Source: a virus
Virus record (IMG/VR): IMGVR_UViG_3300045988_173816
Coordinates: 1 to 64,000 of that record
DNA: 64,000 bases
Strand: one strand, 5' to 3'
The translations under genes and the position numbers were made by a program. The notes under the pieces are model-generated. The model was not told the origin of the DNA and searched no databases. It saw only the letters and a program-made list of their open reading frames with translations. Shown here one piece after another: positions 1,686 through 23,154 of this stretch. Every line of letters begins with the position of its first letter. The first letter of the stretch is position 1.

Positions 1686-1692
1686 TAAGTTC

Positions 1693-5151: not shown

Positions 5152-5167
5152 ATAAAGAAATTTAAGA

Positions 5168-5193
5168 GCAATCCCTTATAGGGGTTGCTTTTT
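5168..5193 (+). terminator. Rho-independent terminator
   Basis: Stem GCAATCCC/GGGGTTGC, then TTTTT. Confidence 0.75.
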
Positions 5194-5240
5194 CCTATGT
5201 TTCACAGAGTTCTTAATTTTAAAATTACTCTGAATAGTTC

Positions 5241-5269
5241 TTGACAAGATAGGGTTTTTCTGATATAAT
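5241..5269 (+). promoter_or_regulatory. sigma-70-type promoter with extended -10
   Basis: TTGACA, 17-nt spacer, TGATATAAT. Confidence 0.75.
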
Positions 5270-5295
5270 AAGGTTATCTTAATGAGGAGGGGAAT

Positions 5296-5565
5296 ATGAA
5301 TCTTAGAGTAATTGTAAAGGGTTGTGACGATAGTACAGACTTTGAATTAGTTTGTACTGATGAGCAATACGCTTTCCTAAGAGAGTTTGCAAGTGCAACA
5401 CAAACGGTATCCACTTTTTCTTGCATGCCTATTGTCAAATTGCAAACTAGTTCAGGGGAGGAGGAAGATATTCCAACTAACTCAGATAACCTTAAATGGG
5501 TTGAAGAGGTCGAAGAAAATGGGGATGATAATTCTCACTATGTGTTAGACACCACCAAACTTTAA
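5296..5565 (+). CDS. hypothetical acidic protein (89 aa)
   Basis: ORF track; strong RBS GAGGAGGGG. Confidence 0.75.
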   Translation: MNLRVIVKGCDDSTDFELVCTDEQYAFLREFASATQTVSTFSCMPIVKLQTSSGEEEDIPTNSDNLKWVEEVEENGDDNSHYVLDTTKL

Positions 5566-5571
5566 TATTAA

Positions 5572-5944
5572 GGGGTCGTCTGGATTCGACAGGCGGTTAG
5601 ACTTTTTAACCTCGCACCGAGTGACTACGTTATAGTCGAACTTAAACATAACTGCAAATAACAATGCACCAGTTCGTATGGCTGCCTAAGCCTTTGGCTT
5701 CGGTAGTTGATATGAACACAAGTAAAATAGTCGAATAGACGAGCGACTGAGATAGGTACCGGTATCTTTTAGTTGCTATAAATCTCGGTACTCGCAACTA
5801 AGGTTTCTCAACTTAGTGTGTTAAATAGAGATATAACTTTTAGTTTTGTGCGTTTCCTAAAAGTCGAATGTTGAAACGTAGCAGTGCGCAGTAAGGTTAA
5901 CTGGAAAGGTCGTTTGGACGTGGGTTCGACTCCCACCGGCTCCA
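5572..5944 (+). ncRNA. ssrA: tmRNA (transfer-messenger RNA), predicted tag ANNNAPVRMAA
   Basis: 5' GGGGTCGTCTGGATTCGACAGG hallmark; 3' T-arm GTGGG-TTCGACT-CCCAC with acceptor CGGCTCC pairing the 5' end; internal frame GCA AAT AAC AAT GCA CCA GTT CGT ATG GCT GCC TAA. Confidence 0.85.
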
Positions 5945-5977
5945 TAAACTAACGAAAAAAACATACACAAAGGGGAT

Positions 5978-6319
5978 ATGATGTCATTTCTTACGAAAAA
6001 CTTAGCTAAAGAAGCTTTAGATGAATACCCTTGTGGTGTTCATATTTGTATCAATCCTTATTATTGGCAATTGGGTAATTCTATTTGTGGTTTAGGTGAT
6101 TTTAAACCTACTGATGTAGATAAATTAGCGGAAATTTTAGATGAAGTTTCTGCACAGATTTATGAAGAAACAGGTTTTCACCCCACAAGTTTAGATTGGT
6201 TAGATATTTTCCCAGAGGATATGTCTTTACTTGATGCTCGCAATAAAAAAGCTAATGAGGACCTTGACGCTCTACTAGATTCTTTACAGTCTGAGTTAAT
6301 TGAGGAAAGTGAGAGGTAA
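5978..6319 (+). CDS. hypothetical acidic protein (113 aa)
   Basis: ORF track; RBS AAAGGGGA. Confidence 0.7.
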   Translation: MMSFLTKNLAKEALDEYPCGVHICINPYYWQLGNSICGLGDFKPTDVDKLAEILDEVSAQIYEETGFHPTSLDWLDIFPEDMSLLDARNKKANEDLDALLDSLQSELIEESER

Positions 6320-6326
6320 GTAGTAA

Positions 6327-6548
6327 ATGGCTAAAGAACACTATCGATGTAGCTTAGGAACTAAAAAGGTCACTAAGTGGGGAAACAGTAAGGGTATCCT
6401 TATACCAACTGCGGTTTTAGAAAACTTAAATTTGTCTGAGGGTAGTGAGGTAGAGTTTATTTTTGAAGATGGGAAGATTGTTTTAAGAAATAAGTCTGAG
6501 CAGTTGGATATTCCAAACTATGATTTAGATGAACTTTTAAAAGAATAG
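6327..6548 (+). CDS. AbrB/MazE/SpoVT-type antitoxin-like DNA-binding protein (73 aa)
   Basis: KVTKWGNSKGILIPTAVLENLNLSEGSEVEF matches the swapped-hairpin MazE/AbrB signature; no toxin gene adjacent. Confidence 0.65.
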   Translation: MAKEHYRCSLGTKKVTKWGNSKGILIPTAVLENLNLSEGSEVEFIFEDGKIVLRNKSEQLDIPNYDLDELLKE

Positions 6549-6603
6549 GAACCTTCAAGTGAATTGTTGTAAGTAAGTCTTAGCTGACTTACTTATTTTA
6601 TAC

Positions 6604-6632
6604 TTGTAATTTTTAGGTTTATTTGATATACT
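6604..6632 (+). promoter_or_regulatory. sigma-70-type promoter
   Basis: TTGTAA, 17 nt, TGATATACT. Confidence 0.55.
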
Positions 6633-6664
6633 ATAATAAATAAAGAGATTTAAGGTGGCTTACT

Positions 6665-7159
6665 ATGAAATTACTAAGAATGAGTGAGGGTTCTACTCTT
6701 ATATACAGTGAAACTATTCGTTACTTTTCACTTCCTAAGAGCTATCCTAGGTTATTAAAGATTTTTGAGAGATGTGGGTATCAATCTAATACTGATATGC
6801 TTTCGTTACTAGATACTTCCTCATTTAATCCTTTGTCTGGGGAATATAAAACTACTCAGAGTAATGAAAATGAACGTATGGGTTTCACTTTTGAGCAACT
6901 TGCTTTAAACCCATTAAATGAGATTCTAAACTGTGGGATTCAACTAATTTTAAATACTAAAACAAATCCTAATGGAGCTAATTTTCTTTGGTTTGTTGTT
7001 GTAGACTTCAATGATACTTATGAGTTGTTTACTCATAATTACGCCTCAATGCTTTCTGAAATCCCTATGACTGAAGAAACAAAGTTTGAACGACTACATC
7101 TCCAACGTGAGTACGAAAGAGAGATTAAACTATTGCAAGAGTACCGAAAAGCTCTCTAA
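6665..7159 (+). CDS. hypothetical protein (164 aa)
   Basis: ORF track; RBS AAGGTGG. Confidence 0.7.
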   Translation: MKLLRMSEGSTLIYSETIRYFSLPKSYPRLLKIFERCGYQSNTDMLSLLDTSSFNPLSGEYKTTQSNENERMGFTFEQLALNPLNEILNCGIQLILNTKTNPNGANFLWFVVVDFNDTYELFTHNYASMLSEIPMTEETKFERLHLQREYEREIKLLQEYRKAL

Positions 7160-7214
7160 ATTTTTCTAAGTATCACTCTTTTCTAGTAAAAACGAAACTT
7201 TTCAAGAAAACTTG

Positions 7215-7243
7215 TTGACAAATATACCTAAGTGTGTTATAAT
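7215..7243 (+). promoter_or_regulatory. sigma-70-type promoter driving the tRNA island
   Basis: TTGACA, 17 nt, TGTTATAAT. Confidence 0.75.
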
Positions 7244-7408
7244 ATAAAACATAGAAGTTAAGTTTTTGCAGTAGACGGATTTAACTGAGCAGTAACGACT
7301 ATAAACATCTGCACATATTTGTCTACAAGGAGTTGGGGTCGCCTTTAAAGAACACGGTCGCGAAAGCCAAATCTGTCTGCGGAAAAGCAGAGACTTACCT
7401 CAAGTTGA

Positions 7409-7468
7409 GACTTGATTGCTGATGATGGATGAGCATTTAGAACGGAGGTTCGATTCCTCCTCAAGTCA
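7409..7468 (+). ncRNA. 60-nt tRNA-like minihelix (acceptor plus T-arm, no recognisable D-arm)
   Basis: GACTTGA/TCAAGTC acceptor, GGAGG-TTCGATT-CCTCC T-arm; central arm TGCT/AGCA with an 11-nt loop. Confidence 0.35.
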
Positions 7469-7601
7469 TTGTTGGAAATAGCATACCATTTCTCAGAGTG
7501 GAGGTGTGGGTTCAAGTCCTTCCTAGATCGTTAATCTAGTAGTATAAGCAACAAATGTTTAAAAGAGGTTACGCAACTGAGATAAGGGTATCCTCAAACA
7601 T

Positions 7602-7673
7602 GCACCATTGGTCAAGTGGTTAAGACACTGCCTTTTCACGGCAGTAACAGGGGTTCGATTCCCCTATGGTGTA
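7602..7673 (+). tRNA. tRNA-Glu (anticodon TTC)
   Basis: Acceptor GCACCAT/ATGGTGT, anticodon stem CTGCC/GGCAG with loop TTTTCAC, T-arm AGGGG-TTCGATT-CCCCT. Confidence 0.85.
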
Positions 7674-7945
7674 TTGTCGGAAACGACAAGGGCGACAGCC
7701 AGCCCCTAAATGGTGTACAACATTTAGAAGTTGCATTAGTGGTAACATACTCTAAGTACAAGGGTATGGGCGCATTAGTGGGTTTACGGTGTTTTGTGTG
7801 TTATAAGCCTTGGACGAAGGTCTAGTTAGTTATCAGAATTAAAAACACATGTGGCTTTGACATGGAGTTACTGTACTGCAGTGCAGTAGTGGGTTCGAAT
7901 CCCATCTTAGTCGTATCATTTATCAAAAAGAAAGAGGGGAGTAGA

Positions 7946-8230
7946 ATGAAACGGGTTAGAAAACCGTTACCAGTGAGTCTCAGACGTTTGATTATCAAAC
8001 ACAGAAATAGAGCTAGAGATGTATATTTTATAGCAGGTACTAAAGCAGTTATGGTGCGTAATCGACATACAGGAGAACTTCTTGGTAATGTTTATTATAA
8101 TGGTACTGAGTTCTACTTTTCAAAGCAGTTGATAAACTATGAATGTAAATTAGGATATCCAAGTTATCTTAAGTTTCGCAAGCTTGTTCTCAGACCTTTG
8201 GAAGAGTGTTTAGTTCTTGGTGGTTTTTAA
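7946..8230 (+). CDS. hypothetical basic protein (94 aa)
   Basis: Track ORF 7862-8230 trimmed to the ATG at 7946 behind RBS AGAGGGGAG; the upstream part overlaps a T-arm-like RNA element. Confidence 0.65.
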   Translation: MKRVRKPLPVSLRRLIIKHRNRARDVYFIAGTKAVMVRNRHTGELLGNVYYNGTEFYFSKQLINYECKLGYPSYLKFRKLVLRPLEECLVLGGF

Positions 8231-8246
8231 TACTTAATTTTGTTGA

Positions 8247-8329
8247 GTGATAGAAGCATTTGTAGGGTGATGCAGTAAGGAGAAGTAGCGCTACTTCTAG
8301 GGAAGTTGGTTCAAGACCATCCTATCACA
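8247..8329 (+). ncRNA. 83-nt tRNA-like element with aberrant anticodon arm (8-nt loop)
   Basis: Acceptor GTGATAG/CTATCAC, D-like arm GCAT/ATGC, arm AGAAG-TAGCGCTA-CTTCT, T-like arm GTTGG-TTCAAGA-CCATC. Confidence 0.35.
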
Positions 8330-8349
8330 TTAGTTTAGAGGTGTTTTAC

Positions 8350-8463
8350 ATGTATGAGATGTTGCTAGATGATTTATTAAGTGCTTTAGAATTAAGAGGT
8401 ATAGACACTTCTAAATTGCATTTAGTTGAGGAACTTGACGGTGATGTTGAACCTCTTAATTAA
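8350..8463 (+). CDS. small ORF (37 aa, MYEMLLDDLLSALELRG...)
   Basis: ATG behind RBS AGAGG; below the ORF-track length cutoff; lies between tRNA genes. Confidence 0.5.
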   Translation: MYEMLLDDLLSALELRGIDTSKLHLVEELDGDVEPLN

Positions 8464-8469
8464 ATTTTA

Positions 8470-8542
8470 GGTCTCGTAGCGTAGAGGTTATCGCGCTGCC
8501 TTGTCACGGCAGAGATCGAGGGTTCGATTCCCTTCGAGACCG
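8470..8542 (+). tRNA. tRNA-Asp (anticodon GTC)
   Basis: Acceptor GGTCTCG/CGAGACC, stem CTGCC/GGCAG with loop TTGTCAC, T-arm GAGGG-TTCGATT-CCCTT. Confidence 0.9.
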
Positions 8543-8589
8543 TTTGTTGGTTTATATGTGCGAAATCCTAAAGGATATCCACATTTTTC

Positions 8590-8670
8590 GGAAAGGTAGC
8601 GAAGAGGTTAAACGCGGCGGACTGTAAATCCGCTCTTTCGGGTTCGGGGGTTCAAATCCCTCTCTTTCCA
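8590..8670 (+). tRNA. tRNA-Tyr (anticodon GTA), long variable arm
   Basis: Anticodon stem GCGGA/TCCGC with loop CTGTAAA; T-loop TTCAAAT; acceptor GGAAAGG/TCTTTCC. Confidence 0.85.
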
Positions 8671-8675
8671 TTATT

Positions 8676-8746
8676 ACGAGTATAGTTTAAAGGTAGAACT
8701 ACGGTCTCCAAAATCGTCAGTGTGGGTTCAATTCCTACTGCTCGTG
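8676..8746 (+). tRNA. tRNA-Trp (anticodon CCA)
   Basis: Acceptor ACGAGTA/TGCTCGT, anticodon stem ACGGT/ATCGT with loop CTCCAAA, T-arm GTGGG-TTCAATT-CCTAC. Confidence 0.85.
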
Positions 8747-8760
8747 TTTAATAAAATATA

Positions 8761-8831
8761 GCGGAATGGTAGCAGTGGTAGCTCGCTTGGTTCATACCCA
8801 AGAGGTCGCAGGTTCGAGTCCTGTTTCCGCA
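8761..8831 (+). tRNA. tRNA with anticodon CAT (Met or Ile2)
   Basis: Anticodon stem CTTGG/CCAAG with loop TTCATAC; T-loop TTCGAGT; acceptor GCGGAA/TTCCGC. Confidence 0.8.
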
Positions 8832-8866
8832 ATAAAATTATTATTATAACTTTAAAGGAGGATAAA

Positions 8867-9034
8867 ATGGTACGTAGATTGTTCCCAAATCATAAACGAT
8901 ATACTAAAAAGGGTGTTACAGCTTTTTATCATCCTGTTTATAAGTGGGTTCATTTGATTTACCCAGATACGATAGACAATCCCTTTTTAGGAGGGAGTTT
9001 GATTGAGGACTCTATAGATAAGTTTAAACAATAA
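8867..9034 (+). CDS. small ORF (55 aa)
   Basis: Strong RBS AAAGGAGGA 7 nt upstream of the ATG; below the ORF-track cutoff. Confidence 0.65.
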   Translation: MVRRLFPNHKRYTKKGVTAFYHPVYKWVHLIYPDTIDNPFLGGSLIEDSIDKFKQ

Positions 9035-9327
9035 ACAGGCTTGAGGGTATCTAACACCCCTGTAGGTTCCTTGTACGGTTTAAAAGATGATAGAAATGAA
9101 CTAGTTGGTGTGGAAGAGGTGCTTTTGTGAATTCTTCTAGTCAACAAAGTAACAAAGAACCGAGATATTCGGATTATTTGAGTTTAAACACTTTAAACAG
9201 TATGTTTCAATCTATAGCTTCAGTTTCTTATGTTGATTACAGAGTTGTAGCAACTGTTTTACATTTAATTATTGAACTTTGTTTAAAGAAAAGGTGTTCT
9301 CCCACCTATTAAGCGGAGGCGATAAAG

Positions 9328-9860
9328 ATTGTCCTAAATAAGACAATTAAACTGTTTCATTATGTAACTTAAATCTAATGGTAAAACCATTATTATCGAG
9401 CTTTGCTTGTAAATTTTGCCACTTGCCGATGAGGTGGGATATAAATGATTCGGTTCGTGAAATTTTGCCACATACTAGGTTGTGGGATATAAATAATCTA
9501 GTTTGTAAAAAAAATTGCCCTAAATAAGACAACTAAACTGTTTCGTTAAGTAAAACGTTAAACCAACGGAGATACCATTACCGTCAAGCTTTGCTTGTAA
9601 AGTTGGCAATTAAATCGACCTGAGTAAGTCACCTTAACTGCTCTAGGTGATACCATACCTTTGTACTTAGATACATAAAGTTGGCAAAAATTTGTCCTAA
9701 ACACGACATTAAACTATTTCGTCTCTTAGACGTTAAACGAGCGTTGACTTTAGGTAGCTACCTCACGGTTATCTAAACGAGCTTCTGATTAGGGTTTTCG
9801 GTATACACCGCGGGTGGGGATTCAAAACCGAAGTTTACTTGTAGTTGATTTGTAAATTTG
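9328..9860 (+). ncRNA. Three tandem units of about 180 nt, each opening with the box (A/T)TTG(T/C)CCTAAA(T/C)A(A/C)GACA-N-TAAACT(G/A)TTTC (orphan guide-RNA-scaffold-like units)
   Basis: Unit starts at 9328, 9514 and 9691. The same box follows the stop codon of the TnpB/Cas12-like ORF at 15951. Units A and B also share AGCTTTGCTTGTAAA. No credible ORF. Confidence 0.55.
9792..9833 (+). ncRNA. Hairpin GGTTTT/AAAACC with loop core CCGCGGGTGGGGA
   Basis: Same stem and loop core as 10301-10332; loop core shared with 10171-10213. Confidence 0.45.
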
Positions 9861-10072
9861 ATATAACATGGCCCCCTGTCTAACATAGTCATTTATGGAA
9901 AACGTGTTAAGAACTTCTAACTGCTTGTTCCCTGCTTTGTCAAAATAACTTTTAGGGGAGAACACATTTGCAAAATTGAAATTATAAGTAAATAATTTTA
10001 TGGTGTAGTCCAGTCGCGCTTAGCGATTGGTGCAAAAGAAAGGTCGTGCGCAAGACTAATCTGCTACACATA

Positions 10073-10145
10073 GCCGATCTAGCTCAGTTGGTAGAGCCTC
10101 TGATTTGTAATCAGACGGTCAACGGTTCGAATCCGTTAATCGGCA
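10073..10145 (+). tRNA. tRNA-Thr (anticodon TGT)
   Basis: GCCGATC-TA-GCTC-AGTTGGTA-GAGC D-arm, anticodon stem TCTGA/TCAGA with loop TTTGTAA, T-arm AACGG-TTCGAAT-CCGTT. Confidence 0.85.
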
Positions 10146-10635: not shown

Positions 10636-11382
10636 ATGATAAAGAAAATAATGAGTCAGTCACTTACTGGTACAAACCACGACAATGAAGACATTTATAA
10701 AGTCTATAAGAACTATGTTTGGGTTATGGATGGTGCTACAGATTTATTTGATACACCTAGTAAGTATGGGTTTTCGGTATCCCAAGTCATGCAAACTTTA
10801 AATCAAGCTTTACCTAAAGAATGTAAAGCTTATAAAGGGTTGAAAGACATTTTAGCTTCTGCAATCTCACAAGTGCAAGCTACATATTTATCCTCTGATT
10901 TAATTTATGATTACTCTGAGTTACCAACTTTTGCTTTTATGTTTGGTCGCTTTATTGGAGATATTTTTGAGTATATTTACTTAGGAGATTGTTATTTAGT
11001 GGTAAATCAAGTAGATTTGATTACAGATAATTCCTTTGCTCCTTTTGTACAAGCAAATAGAGAAGAAATTGCTCACTTAAAGACTCTCAGCGATATTGAT
11101 TTAGAGTTTGAGGTTAGAGAAGTTTATAAACGAACTCGCCACTTAGCAAACCATCCTCAAGGGTATCGAATTGGGAGTCTCGATCCAGAGTGTGCTTATT
11201 TGAGTAATCAAGGTTATTTCCCTTATAATGGTCAAGAGTTGATGTTTATGACAGATGGTTTTTACAATATGTTTTCCAAGTTTGGTTCTATAAGTCGAAC
11301 ACTTTACGAAATTCAAAACTTGCATTTAGAAGGTTCAGTTAAACTAGACGATGCAACCGTTGTAGTAGTGAGAGGGAGTTAA
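10636..11382 (+). CDS. PP2C-like protein phosphatase domain protein
   Basis: GTNHDNEDIY...VMDGATDLF near the N-term and DDATVVVV at the C-term; start moved to the ATG at 10636 behind RBS AGAGAGAAAGAAAG. Confidence 0.5.
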   Translation: MIKKIMSQSLTGTNHDNEDIYKVYKNYVWVMDGATDLFDTPSKYGFSVSQVMQTLNQALPKECKAYKGLKDILASAISQVQATYLSSDLIYDYSELPTFAFMFGRFIGDIFEYIYLGDCYLVVNQVDLITDNSFAPFVQANREEIAHLKTLSDIDLEFEVREVYKRTRHLANHPQGYRIGSLDPECAYLSNQGYFPYNGQELMFMTDGFYNMFSKFGSISRTLYEIQNLHLEGSVKLDDATVVVVRGS

Positions 11383-14435: not shown

Positions 14436-14464
14436 TTGACAAAATTTACCTAATGTAGTAAAAT
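14436..14464 (+). promoter_or_regulatory. sigma-70-type promoter
   Basis: TTGACA, 17 nt, TAAAAT. Confidence 0.55.
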
Positions 14465-14499
14465 AAATACAGTTAAAACTTGAAAGGAGGTCTCTTCAC

Positions 14500-15948
14500 A
14501 TGGAGAAAGGTAAACAAATCTTTATCTATACGCGTAAACTAAATGCAAATAAGTCTCATAAAGAGCAGTTTGCAAAACGTTTCCATATGGCAGAAGATAT
14601 TTATAAGAAAACGCTGATTACATTGTTAAAGCGTTACTCCAAGATGAAGAAAGACCCCCTGTACAAGAGAGCTTACAAGTTCCCTAAAGGAAAAGAGCGT
14701 AATGCGATTTTGAAAGATTTAGGGGTTAAGTACGACCTTGTAGGTAAGTTCACGGCAGGTAAGATTGCTAATGATTACCGTAATGCTCGTAATTACAGTG
14801 ATTATATTCCCTCTGATACTGCTGTTCGATTAGGACATAGAGCTTGGGGTGCTTTTAGCAAAGTTAGGTTTGCTAAAGGTGCGGATAAAGTAAATCTTAA
14901 AGGTACGTTGATTTCATTTGAGGGTAGTAGAGATATAGGAATTAGCGTAAAAGGTAATGTTTTCACTATTTCTACTCGCAAAAAGAAAGTTTCATGTACT
15001 ATTCGTAACGAAAATGATGATTTTGAAGAAGAAGTCTTGCGTAATACATTGAAGTACAATCGTCTCGTTCGTAGGTTTGAGTTTGGAGAGTGGAATTATT
15101 ATGTACAATCTATTTTTGAAGGAACTCTCCCAACAAAGTACACTTCCGAACTTGAAGGTTCTGTAGGGATTGATATTGGTATATCAACCATTGCGGTATC
15201 TTCTTATTACCAAACAGAGTTAGAAGAACTAGCTAAAGATGTAACTTTGGATCAACAAGAGGTTACTCGTTTAAGTCGCAAACTTGACCGTCAACGACGA
15301 GCAAATAACCCTCATAAATACAATGAAGATGGTACTATTAAATGTGGTGTTTGTCAACCTTGGGTTGACTCTAAAGAGTATTTGAAAACCAAAGCAGAAC
15401 TTTCTGAGTTACACCGTAAATCAAAAGAACAGCGTAAATTGGCTCATAAAACTCTAGCTAACAGAATCGTCCGTATGGGTTCTACTTTTGTGGTTGAGCA
15501 GATATCCTTTAAAGAATTACAAGCTCGCACTAAGGAAACAAAAATCAATGAACATACTGGTAAATTTCAATCTAAGAAACGCTTTGGTAAAACTATTTTA
15601 CACAAAGCACCAGCTATGTTGATTGAGCAAATTCGTTATAAAACCATGTATCAAGGTAAAACTTTCATTCTTGCAAATACCAGAGAAGTAAAGGCTTCTC
15701 AGCTAAATCATTTAACTGAAGAGTACACAAAACCTTCTTCAAGTACACGTGTGAAGATGATTGGTGATGATTTAGTTCAACGTAACTTATACTCTGCTTA
15801 TTTACTTCAGCATGTAGGGTTAGATGGTGTAACAGTAGACATTAAGGGATGTAAATCAGATTTTGACACATTTTTACGCAATCAAGAGTTTACAATGTCT
15901 CAACTAACTACAGATTTAAAATCTATAGGTAAAGAATACTTTAATTAA
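14500..15948 (+). CDS. TnpB/Cas12-like RNA-guided-nuclease homolog (482 aa) without zinc-ribbon cysteines; third RuvC acidic residue apparently Asn
   Basis: RuvC-I VGIDIGISTIAV and RuvC-II FVVEQISFKEL present. TnpB-typical RRANNPHKYNEDGTIKCG present. The C-terminal motif reads DDLVQRNLYSAYLL where TnpBs carry (R/A)DxNAAxNI. No CxxC pairs. Strong RBS GAAAGGAGG. Confidence 0.7.
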   Translation: MEKGKQIFIYTRKLNANKSHKEQFAKRFHMAEDIYKKTLITLLKRYSKMKKDPLYKRAYKFPKGKERNAILKDLGVKYDLVGKFTAGKIANDYRNARNYSDYIPSDTAVRLGHRAWGAFSKVRFAKGADKVNLKGTLISFEGSRDIGISVKGNVFTISTRKKKVSCTIRNENDDFEEEVLRNTLKYNRLVRRFEFGEWNYYVQSIFEGTLPTKYTSELEGSVGIDIGISTIAVSSYYQTELEELAKDVTLDQQEVTRLSRKLDRQRRANNPHKYNEDGTIKCGVCQPWVDSKEYLKTKAELSELHRKSKEQRKLAHKTLANRIVRMGSTFVVEQISFKELQARTKETKINEHTGKFQSKKRFGKTILHKAPAMLIEQIRYKTMYQGKTFILANTREVKASQLNHLTEEYTKPSSSTRVKMIGDDLVQRNLYSAYLLQHVGLDGVTVDIKGCKSDFDTFLRNQEFTMSQLTTDLKSIGKEYFN

Positions 15949-15950
15949 AA

Positions 15951-16198
15951 ACTTGTCCTAAATAAGACTTTAAACTGTTTCGGAGTTAATTTGGAGACTT
16001 CGTGAGGAGGTCGTTAATTCAAACACAGGTTTGATTGACTTCTGAGTGACTAGGTGTTTATTCTTGACTCAAAAAAGCAATGTACATAAGAGGTAACTCT
16101 CACTTGAGGGGTATCCAGTAGTAACTTCTGAGTAGACAATAACATTTATGTTGCAGCTTTGTCTAATAGATAGGTTCATTAAAAAACTAAATATTCGA
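15951..16198 (+). ncRNA. Putative guide-RNA scaffold or leader between the TnpB/Cas12-like ORF and its array
   Basis: Starts 3 nt after the stop with the box CTTGTCCTAAATAAGACTTTAAACTGTTTCG, also found 3 times at 9.3-9.7 kb; no ORF. Confidence 0.45.
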
Positions 16199-16433
16199 GG
16201 TTTTGGTACTTATTTGAACATCAAGTTTCCAAAGGTACTAGATGCTGAGTTATTGAGGTGAGGAATTTTTGATATCTGTTTGAACGTCAAGTTTCCAAAG
16301 GACATCGTAATTAACAAGTATGATTTGTCATGTTTGGGTACCTATTTGAAACTCAAGCTTCCAAAGGATATCTTTTTCTTTTTCATTATACTTTATTGGT
16401 TTGGCACCTTCTTAATTTAATACAGTTTCAAAG
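16199..16433 (+). CRISPR. Mini CRISPR-like array 1: three 37-nt repeats plus a degenerate fourth, 29-nt spacers, 66-nt period
   Basis: Repeats at 16199-16235, 16265-16301, 16331-16367 and a degenerate one at 16397-16433. The 3' halves are nearly identical (TTTGAACATCAAGTTTCCAAAGG); the 5' halves diverge (GGTTTTGGTACTTA versus ATTTTTGATATCTG). Confidence 0.65.
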
Positions 16434-16551
16434 ACGTGTGAGCAAATTATATAAGGTTTGGTAATACTATGTTTATCAAGGATTTATAACCTATATATAA
16501 GGGAAATTTTGATTTAGATTTAATAGAACACTTACTTTAAGTGTTTTTTTT

Positions 16552-16580
16552 TTGACTTTTTATAAGTTTTTTGATATAAT
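16552..16580 (+). promoter_or_regulatory. sigma-70-type promoter just after a terminator
   Basis: TTGACT, 17 nt, TGATATAAT; preceded by hairpin AACACTTA/TAAGTGTT plus T9. Confidence 0.75.
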
Positions 16581-16611
16581 AAAGAAAATAAATGAAAGAG
16601 AAGTTTAAAAT

Positions 16612-17886
16612 ATGTATGTTTTGTCTATTAAATTAGATCCTAGAGGTTACGAAAAGCAGTTAGAAAAACGCTTTTGGTTGATGTATAAGTTGAAAAGAGC
16701 TACTATTCAGTGGTTCAATACACAGGAGCACAGAAGGGTATCCTCAGAAGAATATAAACTCCTAGCAACTGAATTTAAAGAGTATTTAGAGGTTAAAGAT
16801 ACTTTATCTAAAGCAGACCAAAAAGCTCAAGATAAAGAGTTCATGAAGAAGTGGGGCGAGTTAAATTCGACATTCAAGTTAGACTCTAGTAAGTTTGTGA
16901 AGTATACTGATTTGGGGCAAGCGACTAATATGTTCAGACGCTATTCCGAAGAAGGTTATGTGAATTGGTCTACCTTTGAAGATTTAGCTTTAGCAGTTAA
17001 GAAAGGGTATTTGAAGCGCAGAAAACAACCTAACTCAGAGAATACTATGAAAATTCCTCGCTATGTAGACTTTCATGGTTTTATTGTTCGTAAGCGTAAT
17101 TTAAATATCACTCAAGATGGGTTATATTTAGGTGGAAATAGAGGAGCTGAGAAAGAGAAGGGTATTTACTTACCGTTTGATTTTGAAGCAAACAAAGGTA
17201 AAGATATTGAGTTAGCTTATGCCTTATCTGAACAAAAGATGTCATATTGGGGTATTTATCGAAAACAAGACAAGTTTGGAAATTGGGTTTATTACGCACA
17301 GATTATATTTGATGGAGAACCTTATCGTTACCAGCTTGTTAAAGGTAACGAAAAAGTTCTTATTTCAGTTGATGTAGATACTTTAGAGTTGACTGCAACC
17401 AATAGTAAGAATACTATTCGTTATGATTTAACTAGAGATTTCGGTATCTCAGATAAATTATCTAATTTGGATCGTTTGATTGAAAACTCTCGTCGAGTAA
17501 ACAATCCTCAAAATTTCAATGAAGATGGTACAATTAAACAAGGTCGTCTCAAGTGGAACAATACGAAGACTTATTACAAATTGTTAGGTAAGCGCAGATA
17601 TATTTGGCACAAGCTAACTCAGACTCGTAAGAACTTTTATGGTCGCGTAATCAATGATTTGTTAGGTTTTGGTTCTGAATTTGAGGTTCACATGCAAGAC
17701 TTCAAAGCATTGCAGGAGCGTATCCAGTATAACAAGGAAACTATGTCTTGGTTTGACTCTCGCAAGTCAAGAGGTGCTGAGATTATGTTCAATGCCCCTT
17801 CTGAGTTTATTCGAATGTTAGATACTAAATTAGCGTATAATGGTTTATCAGCAGTAAAACAAATAAAAGTAAAAGAAAAACAATAA
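16612..17886 (+). CDS. Truncated TnpB/Cas12-like protein (424 aa), predicted nuclease-dead
   Basis: Aligns by eye to the 482-aa neighbour (RRVNNPQNFNEDGTIKQG; FEVHMQDFKALQ versus FVVEQISFKELQ, so RuvC-II Glu is His). It ends before the zinc-ribbon/RuvC-III segment. Confidence 0.65.
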   Translation: MYVLSIKLDPRGYEKQLEKRFWLMYKLKRATIQWFNTQEHRRVSSEEYKLLATEFKEYLEVKDTLSKADQKAQDKEFMKKWGELNSTFKLDSSKFVKYTDLGQATNMFRRYSEEGYVNWSTFEDLALAVKKGYLKRRKQPNSENTMKIPRYVDFHGFIVRKRNLNITQDGLYLGGNRGAEKEKGIYLPFDFEANKGKDIELAYALSEQKMSYWGIYRKQDKFGNWVYYAQIIFDGEPYRYQLVKGNEKVLISVDVDTLELTATNSKNTIRYDLTRDFGISDKLSNLDRLIENSRRVNNPQNFNEDGTIKQGRLKWNNTKTYYKLLGKRRYIWHKLTQTRKNFYGRVINDLLGFGSEFEVHMQDFKALQERIQYNKETMSWFDSRKSRGAEIMFNAPSEFIRMLDTKLAYNGLSAVKQIKVKEKQ

Positions 17887-17891
17887 ACCTC

Positions 17892-17920
17892 TTGACAATC
17901 AAGAGGTTTTATGCTATACT
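17892..17920 (+). promoter_or_regulatory. sigma-70-type promoter for array 2, with its -35 inside terminator hairpin 17888-17910
   Basis: TTGACA, 17 nt, TGCTATACT; hairpin CCTCTTGA-CAA-TCAAGAGG plus TTTT. Confidence 0.75.
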
Positions 17921-18018
17921 TATAAATAGTTAGGGCAGTTCACAGTCCTGTGGAGATATTTTATATCTTTGCGAATAACCTTGCATAAAGGGAAACTACG
18001 GTAAGAACTTAGTTGTGA

Positions 18019-18684
18019 GGTTTTGGTACTGGCTTGTTTGTACACATAGTGAAACATCGGTTGCTTGAACTTGTATATAACAAGCGTTTTAATAACTGTT
18101 TGTATACTTAGTGAAACGACTGCCTGTTTTTCAGCAATGAGTCAGATGTTTAGGTGCTTAGTTCTTCATTTGGTGAAATACTAGACTAGATAACTCTTGA
18201 TTGCTAAAGGTGTTGGTACTCGTTAATTTGTACACTTGGTGAAACTCCGTTACTAGCCACATGAACAACAAAGAAGTTTTGGTTCTTGTATATGTAAATT
18301 TAGTGAAATCTGGTTAACCGAATAATGTAAAACAAACCTATTTTGGTATCGGTTTATTTGTACAATTAGTGAAATTCGTTTTTGTTAACAACTTTAGATT
18401 TCTATTAAGTTTTGGTACTAGTTAATTTGTATAGGTAGTGAAACTCAGTCAAAGCAGATATAGTAGTGAACTCATTTATTTGTAACTCTTTGGTATTCAA
18501 AATTTAGGTGTTTGTTTATTTGTACACTTAGTGAAACTTCATCGAAAATCAGGTAAAACTCTCTTCTGAGTTTTAATCTTAGTGAAATAAGCTATATTTA
18601 CGAATATTAGTAGTTGATTTAGTGTATTTATCATTTTAAACGGTGTTAAATATATAGCGTAAAGCTGATTACTTTACGTGAAAC
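18019..18684 (+). CRISPR. CRISPR-like array 2: about 9-11 strongly degenerate repeats (19-37 nt) with 29-33-nt spacers
   Basis: Repeat 3' ends (TTAGTGAAAC/T) at 18055, 18117, 18179, 18245, 18309, 18375, 18444, 18537 and 18588, possibly 18684. Consensus GTTTTGGTACT...TTTGTACANTTAGTGAAAY. The 5' GGTTTTGGTACT is shared with array 1. Confidence 0.7.
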
Positions 18685-18798
18685 AAATTATACATATAGA
18701 AAGGTTCTTATTTTCCGACTTTTACTTGTCTTAAAGGAACGTACTCTAGGTTTAATTTGTGATGTTTCATATTTTCTTCTTTTTAGCAGCGCTAGAAA

Positions 18799-18874
18799 GA
18801 AGGTGGAGATTAGTAGAACTGTTGCTCCAATTACAGTTCGGTCTAAGTTTGAGGTTCGAGTCCTCAAGTCTTCA
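18799..18874 (+). ncRNA. 76-nt tRNA-like element with a 10-nt loop containing CTCCAA
   Basis: Acceptor GAAGGTG/AGTCTTC (6 of 7 pairs), T-arm TGAGG-TTCGAGT-CCTCA, central stem AACTGT/ACAGTT with loop TGCTCCAATT; D-arm poor. Confidence 0.35.
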
Positions 18875-18905
18875 TTCCAATTTAGCAGTTTGGACAGAAG
18901 AATAA

Positions 18906-19066: not shown

Positions 19067-19279
19067 ATGAATGAAAAAGATAAGAAAGTAGTAGACTTTT
19101 TAAAAGCACAGAGACTCTTCATAGCAGATAAGAATCGGTATCAATACTTGACGGACTTGATTTCTGCTTTTGAAAACGGTATTTATTCCTCAGATATGTC
19201 AGAGGAAGAGTTGCCACATAAGGTTTGGTTGAACATTCAAATGGCTCTAGGTGGGTGGTTTGAGCGAGACCTTGATTAG
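19067..19279 (+). CDS. hypothetical protein (70 aa)
   Basis: ORF track; weak RBS. Confidence 0.55.
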   Translation: MNEKDKKVVDFLKAQRLFIADKNRYQYLTDLISAFENGIYSSDMSEEELPHKVWLNIQMALGGWFERDLD

Positions 19280-19282
19280 GGG

Positions 19283-19999
19283 GTGCGAATTTTGTTTTTA
19301 AACAAGTCTGAAATTTTAGCTCGATTGAGAGACTTAGATTTAAAGTCAGAAGGAGTATCTTCACCAACTGAGGTGCTAATTGTAGGTGGTTCTGCACTAG
19401 CCTTACTAGGTGAACCTCGACTAACTTCGGATATTGATTACCTTGGTTCTCTTAACTATTTACCTAAAGAGTACCTAGCAAGTTTAGGTTTTTCAAATAA
19501 TGTGAAGACTTTTTTCGCTTTGTACGGTACTGATGAATATAGCGCTTTAGAACTGAGTGGGTTTAAGAATTTAATCGTTAAAGTTCTGTCTTACGAGGAC
19601 ATAACAGTTATGAAGTTGTTCTCTTCACGCAAGAAAGATTTAGAAGACCTAATTCAATACATACTTCCTAAATTGACAAGTTATTCTAAATTAAAGCAGA
19701 AGATTGAAACTTATAAAGAGTATTATTTCTTTAATTCTGACTTACCTGAATTGAACCTGAACCAGTTTGACTTAATTAGAGACAGATTAAGAAAAGAACA
19801 GAGGGTTATTTTGGTAGAAGATGCTTCAGTTTCTTTAGGTACTTTCTTAAAGTCACTTCGATTATTGACTTATACTCAGAACACCTATGGAAGAGATTCT
19901 ATGTCTCACTGGTTAGATAAACCTTTAATTGAAGTTGCAACTCAAACTAGTCTGCTGGGGTATCTTTATGCTCACAAGGGTTTAAAAGTTTTAATTTAA
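19283..19999 (+). CDS. minimal nucleotidyltransferase (MNT/DUF6036-like) domain protein
   Basis: LIVGGSALALLGEPRLTSDIDYLG NTase-fold motif; start uncertain (GTG 19283 or TTG 19292). Confidence 0.5.
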   Translation: MRILFLNKSEILARLRDLDLKSEGVSSPTEVLIVGGSALALLGEPRLTSDIDYLGSLNYLPKEYLASLGFSNNVKTFFALYGTDEYSALELSGFKNLIVKVLSYEDITVMKLFSSRKKDLEDLIQYILPKLTSYSKLKQKIETYKEYYFFNSDLPELNLNQFDLIRDRLRKEQRVILVEDASVSLGTFLKSLRLLTYTQNTYGRDSMSHWLDKPLIEVATQTSLLGYLYAHKGLKVLI

Positions 20000-21198: not shown

Positions 21199-21228
21199 CT
21201 TGCACTTTATTTTGATTTGTAGTATAAT
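21199..21228 (+). promoter_or_regulatory. sigma-70-type promoter
   Basis: TTGCAC, 18 nt, TATAAT. Confidence 0.55.
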
Positions 21229-21253
21229 AAACTTATCACAGATGGAGGTTTCT

Positions 21254-21778
21254 ATGTATAGAGATAGTGAATTAACTCAGTCTACTTATAAATTAAACCA
21301 AGTAGCAAAGATGTTAAGTGTAACTCCTACTACATTAAGGAATTGGGAGAAGATAGGGAAGGTTGAGTTTGATAGAACTCCTACAAATATTAGATGTCTC
21401 CCTAGAAATAAGTTGATAGACTTGTTAGATGAACAAGGTTTGTATTACAATGACAGTAATACTCAACAAAAAGATGTTATTTATGCTAGAGTTTCGTCTC
21501 ATGACCAAAAGAAACAAGGTGATTTAGATAGTCAAGTTCATTTCTTAGTGACTGAGATTAAAGATTTACAAAATGTCGTTGTACTTTCAGAAGTTGGTTC
21601 TGGTGTAGATGATAAACGAAAGAAACTCCAACAACTTATTAAAATGGTTATGAGCAATGAAGTGAATAGGGTTTTTATTGCTAATAGAGATAAATTGGCT
21701 CAAGTGGGTTTTCACTATTTAGAGACAGTCTTTAATGCTAAAGGTGTTGAGATTATAGAAGTTAAACAAGATATGTAA
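21254..21778 (+). CDS. tnpA: IS607-type serine recombinase (MerR-like HTH plus resolvase catalytic domain)
   Basis: YKLNQVAKMLSVTPTTLRNWEKIGK HTH and VIYARVSSHDQKKQGDLDSQ catalytic-Ser motif; start set to the ATG at 21254 behind RBS GATGGAGG (the track start lies in the promoter). Confidence 0.7.
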   Translation: MYRDSELTQSTYKLNQVAKMLSVTPTTLRNWEKIGKVEFDRTPTNIRCLPRNKLIDLLDEQGLYYNDSNTQQKDVIYARVSSHDQKKQGDLDSQVHFLVTEIKDLQNVVVLSEVGSGVDDKRKKLQQLIKMVMSNEVNRVFIANRDKLAQVGFHYLETVFNAKGVEIIEVKQDM

Positions 21779-21819
21779 GAACGGTCTATATAATAAACCT
21801 ACATAGAAAGGAGACATAC

Positions 21820-23154
21820 ATGCGTAAGCGAAAATATATTGTGGTTACACAATTACACGAGCAAAATAACAAAGATTTGATTGAATATGTAGAAGTTGCT
21901 CGTCATGCTTACGCTAAAGCTGTGCGTGAAACTTTCTATTGTATTAAAAACTTAGAAGAGTTTAATAAGTCTAGTTTTAACACTTATTTACAAGACTCTT
22001 ACAGTATTACCAAACGAACTGCTAACTCAATTATATCAGATGCTCAAGGTCAAATAAATAGGCTCAAAGGGTTAAAATGTTATGAGAAAACTCAGTTAGA
22101 GCGAAAAATAAAGCAGTTGGAAACAAATGTTATTCCAAAACTAGAACAAAAACGAGATGATACCTCAACTATGTTGAGGTTAGGTTTAGCGGTATCCTTA
22201 GTTTCTCAACGAAATTTAAGGCGCAAGATAGTTGCTAAGAAACAAAAGTTAAATCGCTTAAAACAAAAATTAGCTAATTTAACTTATCAGATTGAAACTT
22301 CTAGTTTTAAATTGTGTTTTGGTACAAAATACTTGTTGCAAAGAGATTATACTGCCTTTGTAGAAGGTAGAGACAGTCAGATGTCTTTCGTGGGTGCGAA
22401 ATGTGAAACCTCTTGTAATCATCAACTACAACTTAGGTATAACTCTAAAAATAATCAATTTGAACTTAAGATGCGAAAAGATTTTGGTGGATTTAAAGAC
22501 TTAAAAGGCTCTGGTCGTTTCGTACTTGGTAAACTTTACTTTAGACATCATAAGGATAAGATAGTCCGTATCCTTAAAGAGAAGAATAGTCCTCTAAGTT
22601 TTAAAATTATCAAGAGAAATAATAGATACTATCTCTATTGTACGTTTGAAGTACAACTTGATTCTGATGATTTCTTAACACGTTCTACTTATGGTACTAT
22701 TGGTTTAGACTTCAATAAAGGGTTCATTACTTTGTCTGAGATTAATCGATATGGTCACTTAGTTCAAACTCAGTTTTTACCTTATCGGTTTAAGTCTGGG
22801 AATAGAACTAGAACCGATTTACAACAGATTGTAGCTAATGTAGTGCATTTGTCATTGAATGAGGGTAAGGATTTATGTATTGAAAATTTGAACTTTGATA
22901 GAAAAAGAGCTAAAACCGAAACAAAACAAGGTAAGAAGTATAATGATATGATTCATTCTCTTGCATATAGTCAGTTTGTAGATTTAGTAGAAACTATAGC
23001 TTACAGGAATAAAGTATTTATTAGGAAGGTCAATCCAGCTTGGACGAGTTGGATTGCAAAACAGAAATATTGTCCACAAATGAAGCTAAATGTTCATGTC
23101 GGAGCTTCATTTGTAATTGCAAGACGTGGACAAGGTTACAAAGACACCGTATAA
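21820..23154 (+). CDS. tnpB: TnpB (IS607-associated type, 444 aa)
   Basis: RuvC-I IGLDFNKG, RuvC-II LCIENLNF, C-term NPAWTSWIAK...HVGASFVIARRG. Confidence 0.75.
   Translation: MRKRKYIVVTQLHEQNNKDLIEYVEVARHAYAKAVRETFYCIKNLEEFNKSSFNTYLQDSYSITKRTANSIISDAQGQINRLKGLKCYEKTQLERKIKQLETNVIPKLEQKRDDTSTMLRLGLAVSLVSQRNLRRKIVAKKQKLNRLKQKLANLTYQIETSSFKLCFGTKYLLQRDYTAFVEGRDSQMSFVGAKCETSCNHQLQLRYNSKNNQFELKMRKDFGGFKDLKGSGRFVLGKLYFRHHKDKIVRILKEKNSPLSFKIIKRNNRYYLYCTFEVQLDSDDFLTRSTYGTIGLDFNKGFITLSEINRYGHLVQTQFLPYRFKSGNRTRTDLQQIVANVVHLSLNEGKDLCIENLNFDRKRAKTETKQGKKYNDMIHSLAYSQFVDLVETIAYRNKVFIRKVNPAWTSWIAKQKYCPQMKLNVHVGASFVIARRGQGYKDTV

Follow-up and report, generated by a model that had tools for sequence, protein, structure and literature searches.

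How a virus comes to carry, one behind the other, two small genes of the TnpB/Cas12 kind, each followed by its own short array of repeats, and against what such a pair might be directed, are questions raised by the record IMGVR_UViG_3300045988_173816 of IMG/VR, of which we analysed positions 1 to 64,000 (64,000 nucleotides (nt); hereinafter, the window). A first-pass annotation, made from the sequence alone, had described two co-oriented open reading frames (ORFs), ORF1 of 482 amino acids (aa) at 14500-15948 and ORF2 of 424 aa at 16612-17886, and both are indeed present on the plus strand. Each unit is built in the same manner, with a small effector gene followed by a structured scaffold RNA and then by a short array. 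We consider it likely that the locus represents a pair of phage-borne, TnpB-derived, type V-like (TranC or V-U-like) CRISPR systems that act against an integrative element in the same host.

The first step is to establish what the arrays are. Array 1 consists of three good repeats and one decayed copy with a 66-nt period (starts at 16200, 16266, 16332 and, for the decayed copy, 16398), with 30-nt spacers at 16236, 16302 and 16368 and a further decayed remnant that extends to ~16481. Array 2 contains 8-9 copies of a 36-nt repeat that include indels and decay progressively, with periods of 51-93 nt, mostly 62-69; the best-conserved part of this repeat is its 3' end, TTAGTGAAA(C/T). The array units are best read as 36-nt repeats and 30-nt spacers because the leader ends in GAG (16197-16199 for array 1 and 18017-18019 for array 2) and the repeat starts with GTTTT. 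The two repeat families that the first-pass annotation had placed after the two ORFs are thus real, with boundaries off by one base, the first G of its 'GGTTTT' being part of the leader; the 66-nt period of array 1 stands, and the 29-nt spacers become 30 nt in the new parse. Tandem Repeats Finder (TRF) reports neither array because the units are only half repeated, and the evidence that the repeats exceed chance comes from related loci, in which the same repeat types lie beside homologues of the two genes, and not from statistics within the window. As read from the sequence, the repeats can fold such that their 5' and 3' ends are brought together.

Comparison with related loci (L001 and so on, metagenome or IMG/VR contigs that were compared with the window) shows that the arrays gain spacers at one, gene-proximal end, as CRISPR arrays do. 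The ORF1 proteins of L001 and L002 are identical, yet their arrays differ: at the gene-proximal end, array 1 is longer by two units in L002 and array 2 is longer by one unit in L001. All other units occur in both loci in the same order; repeats close to the gene are nearly identical, and distal ones decay. A clean seven-unit array is present in L039. No spacer of the window is identical to a spacer of L001 or L002, and two spacers of its array 2 have diverged counterparts in L012 and L013.

With respect to the targets, 84 distinct spacers were extracted from the arrays of the window and the related loci. None matched the cultured phages of INPHARED (blastn), and five spacer 20-22-mers searched against IMG/VR matched only the arrays from which they came. 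An exact 20-mer of the second-newest spacer of L002, by contrast with these searches, retrieved 13 metagenome contigs (L198-L210), each of which contains the full spacer at 27-29/30 identity, inside an ORF and with no adjoining repeat. When all spacers were compared with these contigs, 10/84 matched with 0-6 mismatches in 30 and shuffled spacers gave 0 matches; seven of the matching spacers are of the ORF1 type and three of the ORF2 type. Both arrays of the window contribute: spacer 2 of array 1 (16302-16331) matches four variants of the target sequence at 27/30, and spacer 4 of array 2 (18246-18275) matches at 30/30 at L206 5437, on the minus strand, with the 5' flank CCA. All but two of the ten spacers match within ~1.1 kb (L206 4350-5470), a stretch that contains a 305-aa gene, a 130-aa ORF matched by six spacers, and a 179-aa membrane-protein ORF; comparison of these three proteins with PHROGs, PADLOC and Pfam brought out no function. 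The same element encodes an Xre-type regulator, an FtsK-like P-loop protein/ATPase, a tyrosine integrase, and a Rep protein that combines an origin-binding domain (Rep_OBD) with an SF3 helicase and is 34% identical to the Reps of small Lactococcus plasmids. Thus, spacers of both array types, from several phages, converge on one integrase/Xre/Rep-helicase element, and the spacer search that the first-pass annotation had proposed finds its matches in metagenome contigs and none in INPHARED. The target contigs have a guanine-cytosine (GC) content of 34.9%, compared with 35.5% for the window, and one of them belongs to a human saliva data set (PMC7782811).

When the spacers were searched against the window and the fetched related loci themselves, a single cross-match was found: spacer 3 of L039 matches the opposite strand of L044 5030 and L012 6044, with 1 and 3 mismatches in 22 nt, respectively. 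The homologous site in the window (~18700-18730) has diverged. This spacer may reflect targeting between related phages.

The protospacers share features on their 5' side that resemble a protospacer adjacent motif (PAM). The 5' flanks of the ORF1-type protospacers are CTG, CTA/TTA, TTT/CTT, CTA, CCT, CCA and TCG, that is YYN, with pyrimidines at -3 and -2 in 7/7 cases (p ~1e-4), and those of the ORF2-type protospacers are CCA, CCG and CCA, that is CCR, with CC in 3/3 (p ~2e-5). No consensus emerged among the 3' flanks of the protospacers, and the mismatches between spacer and target are mostly distant from the PAM-side flank. Furthermore, around the 130-aa gene every ORF1-type spacer is in the sense orientation and every ORF2-type spacer in the antisense orientation.

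Between each gene and its array lies a predicted structured RNA. Scaffold 1 (250 nt, from ORF1 to array 1) is 94% identical to its counterparts in L001 and L002 and the synonymous sites of ORF1 differ by 33%, so that the scaffold is more conserved than synonymous sites. RNAalifold applied to eight loci predicts 79 pairs in scaffold 1, 12 of them with compensatory changes. This scaffold contains an anti-repeat, ATTTGGAGACT (15989-15999), that can base-pair with the array-1 repeat at its 3' end, AGTTTCCAAAG, and RNAalifold places the corresponding segment, TTTGGAGAC (15990-15998), in a long-range helix with the repeat 3' end GTTTCCAAA; in the window the anti-repeat duplex is 10 bp long (-11.8 kcal/mol). 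The anti-repeat was found in 10/10 loci and pairs with the repeats in 9, L038 having given no repeat copy by the pattern used. The two partners change in step in L040 and L042, where AAGTGGAAAC pairs with GTTCCTCTT; across the alignment, 84.5% of the cells in this helix pair, and its covariation score was reached in 2/500 shuffles.

The predicted scaffold 2 has three helices. Helix P1 (AGGGC/GTCCT) bears a loop, GTTCAC (17938-17943), that is complementary to the repeat 3' end GTGAAAC, and the loop and the repeat covary (GTTCAC with GTGAAAC versus TTTGC with GCAAAA). It is followed by helix P2 (GTGGAGATAT/ATATCTTTGC) and by helix P3 (AACCTTGCA/TGTGAGGTT), which encloses the loop GAAACTACGGTAAGA (17992-18006) and the 3' strand of which reaches four bases into repeat 1. 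In 12 loci this loop is invariant although the proteins share only 44-93% identity, and compensatory double changes were detected in 9/12 pairs of P3. A search of the locus against Rfam matched no family.

What, then, are the two proteins? ORF1 and ORF2 are paralogues, with 30% identity over 211 aa (BLASTP, E 7e-23). ORF1 marginally passes the Pfam model OrfB_IS605 (E 9e-8, 32.7 bits against a cutoff of 30.5) and remains under the curated cutoff of 100 bits for the NCBIfam model guided_TnpB (E 2e-16, 60 bits) and under that of 350 bits for C2c8/type V-U2 (NF038192; 45.3 bits, over the RuvC half only); IS607/IS200 TnpB models are also matched below their cutoffs, and PADLOC gives weak matches to Cas12f and Cas12u2/u4. 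ORF2 matches no model in Pfam, NCBIfam or PADLOC. The AlphaFold (AF2) models, built on the family alignments and with a predicted local distance difference test (pLDDT) score of 85.8 for ORF1 and 83.8 for ORF2, indicate that both proteins have the RuvC-containing bilobed fold (WED/REC/RuvC) of the TnpB/Cas12 superfamily. In Foldseek comparisons of these predicted models, ISDra2 TnpB is the best match for ORF1 (E 6e-12), with AsCas12f, Cas12p and LaTranC also among the top PDB matches, and likewise for ORF2 (2.7e-8), together with Cas12f structures; both models reach a probability of 1.0 with ISDra2 TnpB, ISFba1 TnpB, AsCas12f, Cas12p, Cas12m, dCas12f and LaTranC. Searches of PDB chains by sequence with ORF1, ORF2 and the family profiles found nothing relevant, so that the tie to these PDB entries comes from structure comparison. 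The TnpB/Cas12 likeness proposed by the first-pass annotation, and the structure and hidden Markov model (HMM) searches it had called for, hence agree on a TnpB/Cas12f fold for both proteins, with weak HMM support for ORF1.

The annotation, which had also ascribed shared core motifs to the two proteins, had missed that ORF2 is a truncated, nuclease-dead protein and that ORF1 departs from the consensus of its own family. Across the ORF1 family (alignment A1), the catalytic residues of RuvC-I (D225), RuvC-II (E333) and RuvC-III (D429, in the motif VQRDLYSAF) are nearly invariant, and zinc-finger cysteines are lacking throughout the family. The window ORF1 retains D225 and E333 and has asparagine at the RuvC-III position (N429, VQRNLYSAY), as do its closest relatives; among the 120 best ORF1 clusters, residue 429 is D in 106, N in 6 and K in 2. 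Because the third residue of the triad is N, the window ORF1 is probably impaired or acts by binding only, whereas ORF1-type effectors with an intact D-E-D triad would be expected to cut the target element. The ratio of nonsynonymous to synonymous substitution rates (dN/dS) between two N429 copies, those of the window and L001, is 0.11, which indicates strong purifying selection.

A complete D-E-D triad is absent also from ORF2, for which the sequence evidence goes further. In the family alignment (A2), which comprises 23 sequences, ~90 columns are invariant, and all but three of the proteins measure 420-436 aa. At the RuvC-I column the family varies (D/N/K/S), at the RuvC-II column it never has E (H/Y/R/K/S/L; H in the window), and all 23 members stop ~25 residues past an MFNAP.EF motif, so that the RuvC-III/TNB region is absent. 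Judged by these sequences, ORF2 is clearly nuclease-dead and truncated. Yet dN/dS in this family is 0.05-0.06, which again indicates strong purifying selection, and given the loss of RuvC-I and RuvC-II and the lack of RuvC-III, the ORF2 family therefore probably functions as a binder or silencer that, for example, blocks transcription or replication of the element.

The ancestry of the two genes can be traced to insertion sequences (IS). ORF1 has 884 detectable relatives, many of them on contigs of 200-500 kb, and ORF2 has 37; these are annotated at most as 'hypothetical protein' or 'transposase', and protein length is preserved in both groups, across 37 clusters for ORF2 and over 100 for ORF1. 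Bacterial genomes contain 452 family members across Bacillota, none of which exceeds 40% identity to ORF1; some genomes have several copies, and one member, from Trichococcus, lies directly downstream of a Y1 (IS200-type) TnpA (E 2e-44). Because of these relatives, the sequences place the lineage among the IS200/IS605 TnpBs, with the ORF1/ORF2 family nested inside. ORF1 and ORF2 themselves have no adjoining tnpA and hold a fixed syntenic position. Arrays on the IMG/VR contigs are found only beside close ORF1 relatives, of 84-89% identity (L038-L045), and an ENA contig, L004, the ORF1 relative of which is 64% identical, also bears an array; among the loci examined, the array-bearing ORF1 relatives thus form a subclade of at least 64% identity that is present only on phage-like contigs. 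No arrays were found beside the 31-41%-identical relatives on IMG/VR contigs, ten of which have instead a single ~65-nt element right after the stop codon that begins with GGTTTTGATAC and finishes with GATAGTGAAA, that is, with both ends of the array repeats. Loci L040 and L042 contain only scaffold 1 and one repeat-like unit. The description 'TnpB-to-CRISPR transitional' that the first-pass annotation had offered is apt for a family that nests in IS200/IS605 TnpBs and possesses arrays with spacers gained at one end.

Repeat type and effector type occur together. ORF1-type effectors are followed by an array in the window, L001, L002, L004, L038, L039, L044 and L045, and ORF2-type effectors in the window, L001, L006, L008, L012-16 and L030, with the array located upstream of the gene in L025 and L029. 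Each repeat type tracks its protein family across distant loci whose proteins are only 44-68% identical. Moreover, related phages show three arrangements at a single syntenic site that lies upstream of genes for a 70-aa protein and a DUF6036 protein, namely ORF1 with D429 plus array 1; ORF2 plus array 2; and, in the window, ORF1 with N429 plus array 1 followed by ORF2 plus array 2. The 70-aa and DUF6036 genes are kept at this position in all three arrangements.

Some related loci depart from this plan. L008, with an ORF2 relative of 45% identity, has two promoter-scaffold-array modules (8448-8760 and 10761-11150), and in L004 the ORF1 homologue is separated from its scaffold by an inserted 118-aa gene. 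Mini-arrays of three palindromic repeats, unrelated to those described here, lie beside ORF1 relatives of 37% and 33% identity in L076 (5050-5230) and L114 (4570-4720), one with the repeat GTTGCAACCCACACGGGTTGCGTTAGATTGAAAT and one with a repeat containing CCCCACAGGTGTGGGGG; these may be independent array associations or coincidence. Tandem 66-nt units in L010 (13021-13318), near an array-less, 57%-identical ORF1 relative, were rejected as a CRISPR array, being apparently located in a called gene beside a run of N.

A feature of the arrays that the first-pass annotation had missed is the likeness of their repeats to those of type II-A systems. Compared in register with the streptococcal II-A repeat GTTTTAGAGCTGTGTTGTTTCGAATGGTTCCAAAAC, which appears in papers on the type II-A systems of S. 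thermophilus and S. agalactiae, the repeats are identical at 17-27/36 positions, shuffled sequences giving a mean of 10 (standard deviation 2.6). The arrays also have the 36-nt repeat starting with GTTT, the 30-nt spacers and the leader ending in GAG that are features of type II-A arrays; the GAG/GTTT leader-repeat junction is a signature of II-A groups 1 and 2, in which the last 10 leader bases plus one repeat suffice for adaptation (PMC5382924). The cas9-cas1-cas2-csn2 machinery of type II-A was not found among the 55 ORFs of 100 aa or more in the window, and models of Cas1, Cas2, Cas4, Csn2 and Cas9 matched none of these ORFs, in keeping with the earlier observation that the locus lacks cas1, cas2, cas4 and other cas genes. 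A phage-encoded Cas9 trans-activating CRISPR RNA (tracrRNA) was considered and rejected, the window containing no anti-repeat of at least 16 nt beyond chance. Because repeats, spacer size and GAG/GTTT junction resemble those of II-A arrays, we suggest that host II-A adaptation proteins (Cas1-Cas2-Csn2) might write spacers into the phage arrays; this proposal is speculative, and on balance we lean against it. In this connection, the ORF2-type flank CCR is the reverse complement of YGG, an NGG-type Cas9 PAM on the other strand, a likeness that bears on the idea that host II-A machinery selects the spacers, and that, with three cases, may be due to chance.

Judging from these features, the systems probably work as follows. 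Transcription would proceed from the gene side, through repeat and then spacer, and the guide would comprise the 3' part of a repeat and the spacer downstream of it. The scaffold anti-repeat would pair with the repeat 3' end, within the same RNA for the first unit and between separate RNAs for later units, and this pairing would rebuild an omega-RNA-like fold. The resulting ribonucleoprotein would recognise DNA with a 5' PAM, which is approximately YYN when the guide is of the ORF1 type and CCR when it is of the ORF2 type, and ORF1-type effectors with the D-E-D triad would then cut the element, with ORF2 acting by binding alone.

Three other explanations of the locus have to be set against this one. 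It is conceivable, and in our estimate improbable, that the arrays are ordinary virus-borne II-A mini-arrays read by a host Cas9 with its tracrRNA against a competitor, the TnpB-like genes being incidental IS-derived passengers. The 36-nt repeats and 30-nt spacers, the 17-27/36 identity with II-A, the GAG/GTTT junction, the lack of cas genes in the window and the relation of CCR to YGG could all be accommodated in this way, but each repeat type is tied to its own protein family, even among phages with only 44-68% protein identity. Moreover, the repeat is conserved best at its spacer-side 3' end, as type V needs, whereas a Cas9 tracrRNA pairs with the 5' part; the scaffolds contain anti-repeats to that 3' end and the window has no Cas9-type anti-repeat; the consistent protospacer flank is on the 5' side, with no common 3' flank; single-unit and array-less versions with an omega-RNA-like element lie beside homologues; and both proteins are under strong purifying selection. 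Somewhat less probable again is that the two genes represent copies of an IS200/IS605 tnpB, selfish or in decay, and that the arrays are functionless relics of tandem duplication of the omega-RNA end. Duplication alone cannot make new foreign 30-nt spacers, and spacers here turn over at one end between near-identical phages and match an unrelated element with PAM-like flanks, with controls at 0; dN/dS values of 0.05-0.11, lengths conserved across clusters, the lack of an adjoining tnpA and the fixed syntenic position likewise speak against decay, even though the lineage is one of IS-type TnpBs, the window also encodes an IS607 tnpA and two additional tnpB-like proteins, array 2 has degenerated, ORF1 lacks the RuvC-III Asp and ORF2 lacks any catalytic residue. 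The idea that the periodic repeats are protein-binding iterons or replication/partition sites unrelated to guide RNAs has in its favour the regular ~66-nt spacing in intergenic DNA and is, we think, scarcely credible: the segments between repeats are swapped wholesale between close relatives that keep the repeats, these segments match foreign DNA, and the arrays are bracketed by promoter, structured leader and terminator. The turnover of the spacers and their matches to foreign DNA lead us to reject both the iteron and the relic explanations.

Several observations nevertheless weigh against the interpretation of the locus as a pair of phage-borne guided systems. For 74/84 spacers there is no known target, and the PAM patterns derive from 7 and 3 protospacers and were chosen after viewing the data. 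The predicted anti-repeat helix of scaffold 1 deserves moderate confidence because the pairing slid by one column is still 78% paired, and its covariation comes from one lineage (L040/L042); the loop-repeat pairing of scaffold 2 amounts to only 5-6 bp. Array 2 of the window shows plain signs of decay, its repeats being degenerate and interrupted by indels, such that some units may be non-functional, and approximately half of the distant ORF2 relatives in IMG/VR lack an array within 4 kb. A scan of bacterial genomes for the host yielded only IS-type relatives of at most 40% identity and no host, and three large window ORFs compared with cultured phages by tblastn gave no match, so that no hallmark gene supports the phage label. 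The protospacers lack a 3' Cas9-type PAM, which weakens the case for a complete II-A machinery picking the spacers. Finally, the orientation of transcription, the processing and the use of the scaffold between molecules are deduced from the sequence.

The features of the locus are collected in the table.

Table. Predicted and observed features of the tandem TnpB/Cas12-like locus, in window coordinates
Feature	Position	Strand	Basis
ORF1-side promoter-like site, TTGACA-17-TAAAAT	14436..14464	+	11/12 in consensus scan
ORF1, 482 aa, TnpB/Cas12-like effector	14500..15948	+	HMM, AF2 model, Foldseek, alignment A1
Scaffold 1, predicted structured non-coding RNA, tracrRNA-/omega-RNA-like	15949..16199	+	conservation, RNAalifold
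Array 1	16200..16433	+	36-nt repeats, 30-nt spacers
Candidate terminator of the ORF1-array 1 unit	16528..16553	+	AT-rich hairpin AACACTTA-CTT-TAAGTGTT followed by T run
ORF2-side promoter-like site, TTGACT-17-TATAAT with extended TG	16552..16580	+	11/12 in consensus scan
ORF2, 424 aa, truncated nuclease-dead TnpB/Cas12-like paralogue	16612..17886	+	BLASTP to ORF1, AF2 model, alignment A2
Terminator of ORF2, hairpin CCTCTTGA-caa-TCAAGAGG and then TTTTAT, with promoter P3 overlapping it	17885..17920	+	inverted repeat and promoter scan
Scaffold 2, predicted structured non-coding RNA of ~90 nt	17927..18019	+	loop invariance, compensatory pairs
Array 2	18020..18620	+	9 repeat copies, spacers of 28-33 nt

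No strong promoter or terminator was found between ORF1 and array 1, and a single transcript starting from the promoter-like site at 14436-14464 probably covers ORF1, scaffold 1 and array 1; the AT-rich hairpin at 16528-16553 is a probable terminator of this unit, judging from its sequence, and is not called by the terminator scan owing to fewer than three G-C pairs in its stem. Array 2 appears to be served separately: the TTGACA/TATACT promoter at 17892 recognised in the first-pass annotation (P3, TTGACA-17-TATACT, 17892-17920) scores 11/12 and overlaps the terminator hairpin of ORF2 (17885-17909), and a TTGACA-17-TATAAT promoter lies at an equal distance from the scaffold in the distant relatives L008, L025, L029 and L030.

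The phage-like carrier proposed earlier is probable, and the probable source is a giant phage of oral Gram-positive bacteria. This label draws on relatives among the uncultivated viral genomes of IMG/VR (UViGs) of 230-290 kb, on a tRNA/tmRNA cluster, on the location of nearly all genes of at least 100 aa on one strand, and on two PHROG families of unknown function together with weak matches to phages of Bacillota. DNA similarity to cultured phages is confined to a 185-nt stretch of a 'transposase' of Geobacillus virus E3. Nine tRNA genes (Ser x3, Glu, Asp, Tyr, Trp, Met and Thr) are clustered within 1-10145 and a tmRNA with the tag peptide ANNNAPVRMAA is located at 5572-5944, a cluster typical of large phages; a tRNA-like T-arm, GAGGTTCGAGTCCTC, at ~18852-18866, between array 2 and the next gene (18690-18900), is not called by ARAGORN. 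LPXTG surface proteins are encoded both in related phages (L006 817-5655, with a faint match to MucBP repeats, and L018 ~3300-3600) and in the target element (L209 5816-8488), which points to a Gram-positive host, probably of the Lactobacillales.

Several other genes of the window deserve mention. In the stretch 21200-23154, an IS607-family serine transposase with MerR and Resolvase domains (21200-21778) scores 120 bits on NF033518, over the cutoff, and the 444-aa ORF behind it has weak TnpB-related matches and no similarity to ORF1. A third, canonical TnpB of 414 aa (28376-29620; guided_TnpB 198.8 bits, above cutoff; PHROG 506 'transposase') is unrelated in sequence to ORF1 and ORF2, and a periodicity scan found no array near it. 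The PADLOC 'Csx1' model matches one of the 55 window ORFs (E 3e-28), which is not among the ten ORFs that were re-tested, and other ORFs give weak PADLOC matches to RT_UG29, mad1 and PD-T4-4_A. Directly 3' of the locus (19067-19999), the 70-aa ORF and the DUF6036 nucleotidyltransferase-like ORF (238 aa, Pfam E 3e-13) may form a toxin-antitoxin-like pair.

Among described systems, TranC and the type V-U/Cas12f-like systems are the closest. Similar to TranC (LaTranC, PDB 9jfq; CauTranC9), the locus combines a TnpB-sized effector nested among IS605-type TnpBs with a short downstream array (3-9 repeats of ~36 nt), no adaptation genes and a guide that appears to be split into a scaffold (tracr-like RNA) and a repeat-derived CRISPR RNA (crRNA), and LaTranC is among the Foldseek matches of both models; some TranC systems are phage-borne, and the native spacers of CauTranC9 target phages (bioRxiv 10.64898/2026.03.27.714800). 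Unlike TranC, the proteins show no sequence similarity to LaTranC or any solved TnpB/Cas12, even by profile, the effector stands in tandem with a truncated dead paralogue that has its own array, repeats and junction are II-A-like, and the spacers are aimed at an integrative element and not at phages. The C2c8 (V-U2), Cas12u2, Cas12u4 and Cas12f models match weakly over the RuvC half, and small protein size, downstream array and lack of cas1/2/4 are shared, as in V-F, V-M and most V-U groups, which have a small effector and an array without cas1/2/4 (PMC10691335); however, the scores are far under the cutoffs, there is no zinc finger here and ORF2 matches none of these models.

For ORF2, the relevant parallels are inactive effectors. 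TldRs, some of which are encoded by prophages and for which RNA-guided binding is the proposed mode of action, resemble ORF2 as TnpB derivatives without RuvC catalytic residues and C-terminal part; however, the known TldR clades (fliC-, csrA- and oppF-associated) lack arrays and direct a single, fixed omega-RNA-like guide at a promoter of the host, whereas ORF2 has turning-over arrays of 3-9 variable spacers, some of which match a mobile element, and its neighbours are unrelated phage genes. Cas12m, Cas12k, Cas12c and the inactivated V-U24/43/44 likewise combine an inactive RuvC with a CRISPR array, and such nuclease-inactive type V effectors carry out interference or targeting by binding (PMC12669027, PMC10691335); they are much larger and belong to other lineages, whereas ORF2 lacks the whole RuvC-III/TNB region and is phage-borne.

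With respect to function, the best analogy is the type I-F system of the lytic phage ICP1, which is likewise a phage-carried CRISPR that targets a host-integrated mobile island, the PLE of Vibrio cholerae (PMC6452262); by this analogy the target element here would have a putative anti-phage or satellite role. ICP1, however, encodes a complete class 1 system with cas1 and cas2-3, whereas here single TnpB-sized effectors come without an adaptation module. Cas12p ('hacker'), CasPhi/Cas12j and Cas-lambda are phage-borne and compact as well, with small arrays and no adaptation genes, and Cas12p uses a tracrRNA (bioRxiv 10.1101/2025.01.20.633832), but these are active nucleases of 500-800 aa, and Cas12p is matched by structure only, without sequence-level kinship. 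Four features of the locus are noteworthy, namely the dead truncated paralogue with its own adaptive array, the RuvC-III Asp-to-Asn change in its partner, II-A-like arrays without adaptation genes in the window, and the convergence of the spacers of both systems on one element.

If the proposed interpretation is correct, one clade spans array-less forms with a single omega-RNA-like element, single-unit forms, and turning-over arrays of 3-9 units, and the origin of type V arrays would thereby become directly comparable across close relatives. The ORF2 family would represent a TldR-like dead effector with an adaptive array, a combination undescribed for TldRs, and, at 424 aa, far below the size of Cas12m, Cas12k and Cas12c, ORF2 would make an attractive DNA binder, minimal in size and programmable. 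That the arrays gain spacers at one end, with no cas1/cas2 found in the window, and have II-A-like repeats and junction, suggests that the phage may borrow host adaptation machinery across CRISPR types. A more far-reaching scenario, which we offer tentatively and regard as rather doubtful, is that a lineage of giant phages turned one IS605 TnpB into a cutter and a dead binder, loaded by the host through II-A mimicry and directed against an integrative element that interferes with the phage and is possibly a satellite; should it hold, the dead binder would be a natural, phage-encoded, reprogrammable form of CRISPR interference (CRISPRi). The convergence of spacers on one small ORF points to a conflict of the ICP1/PLE kind in the human oral microbiome.

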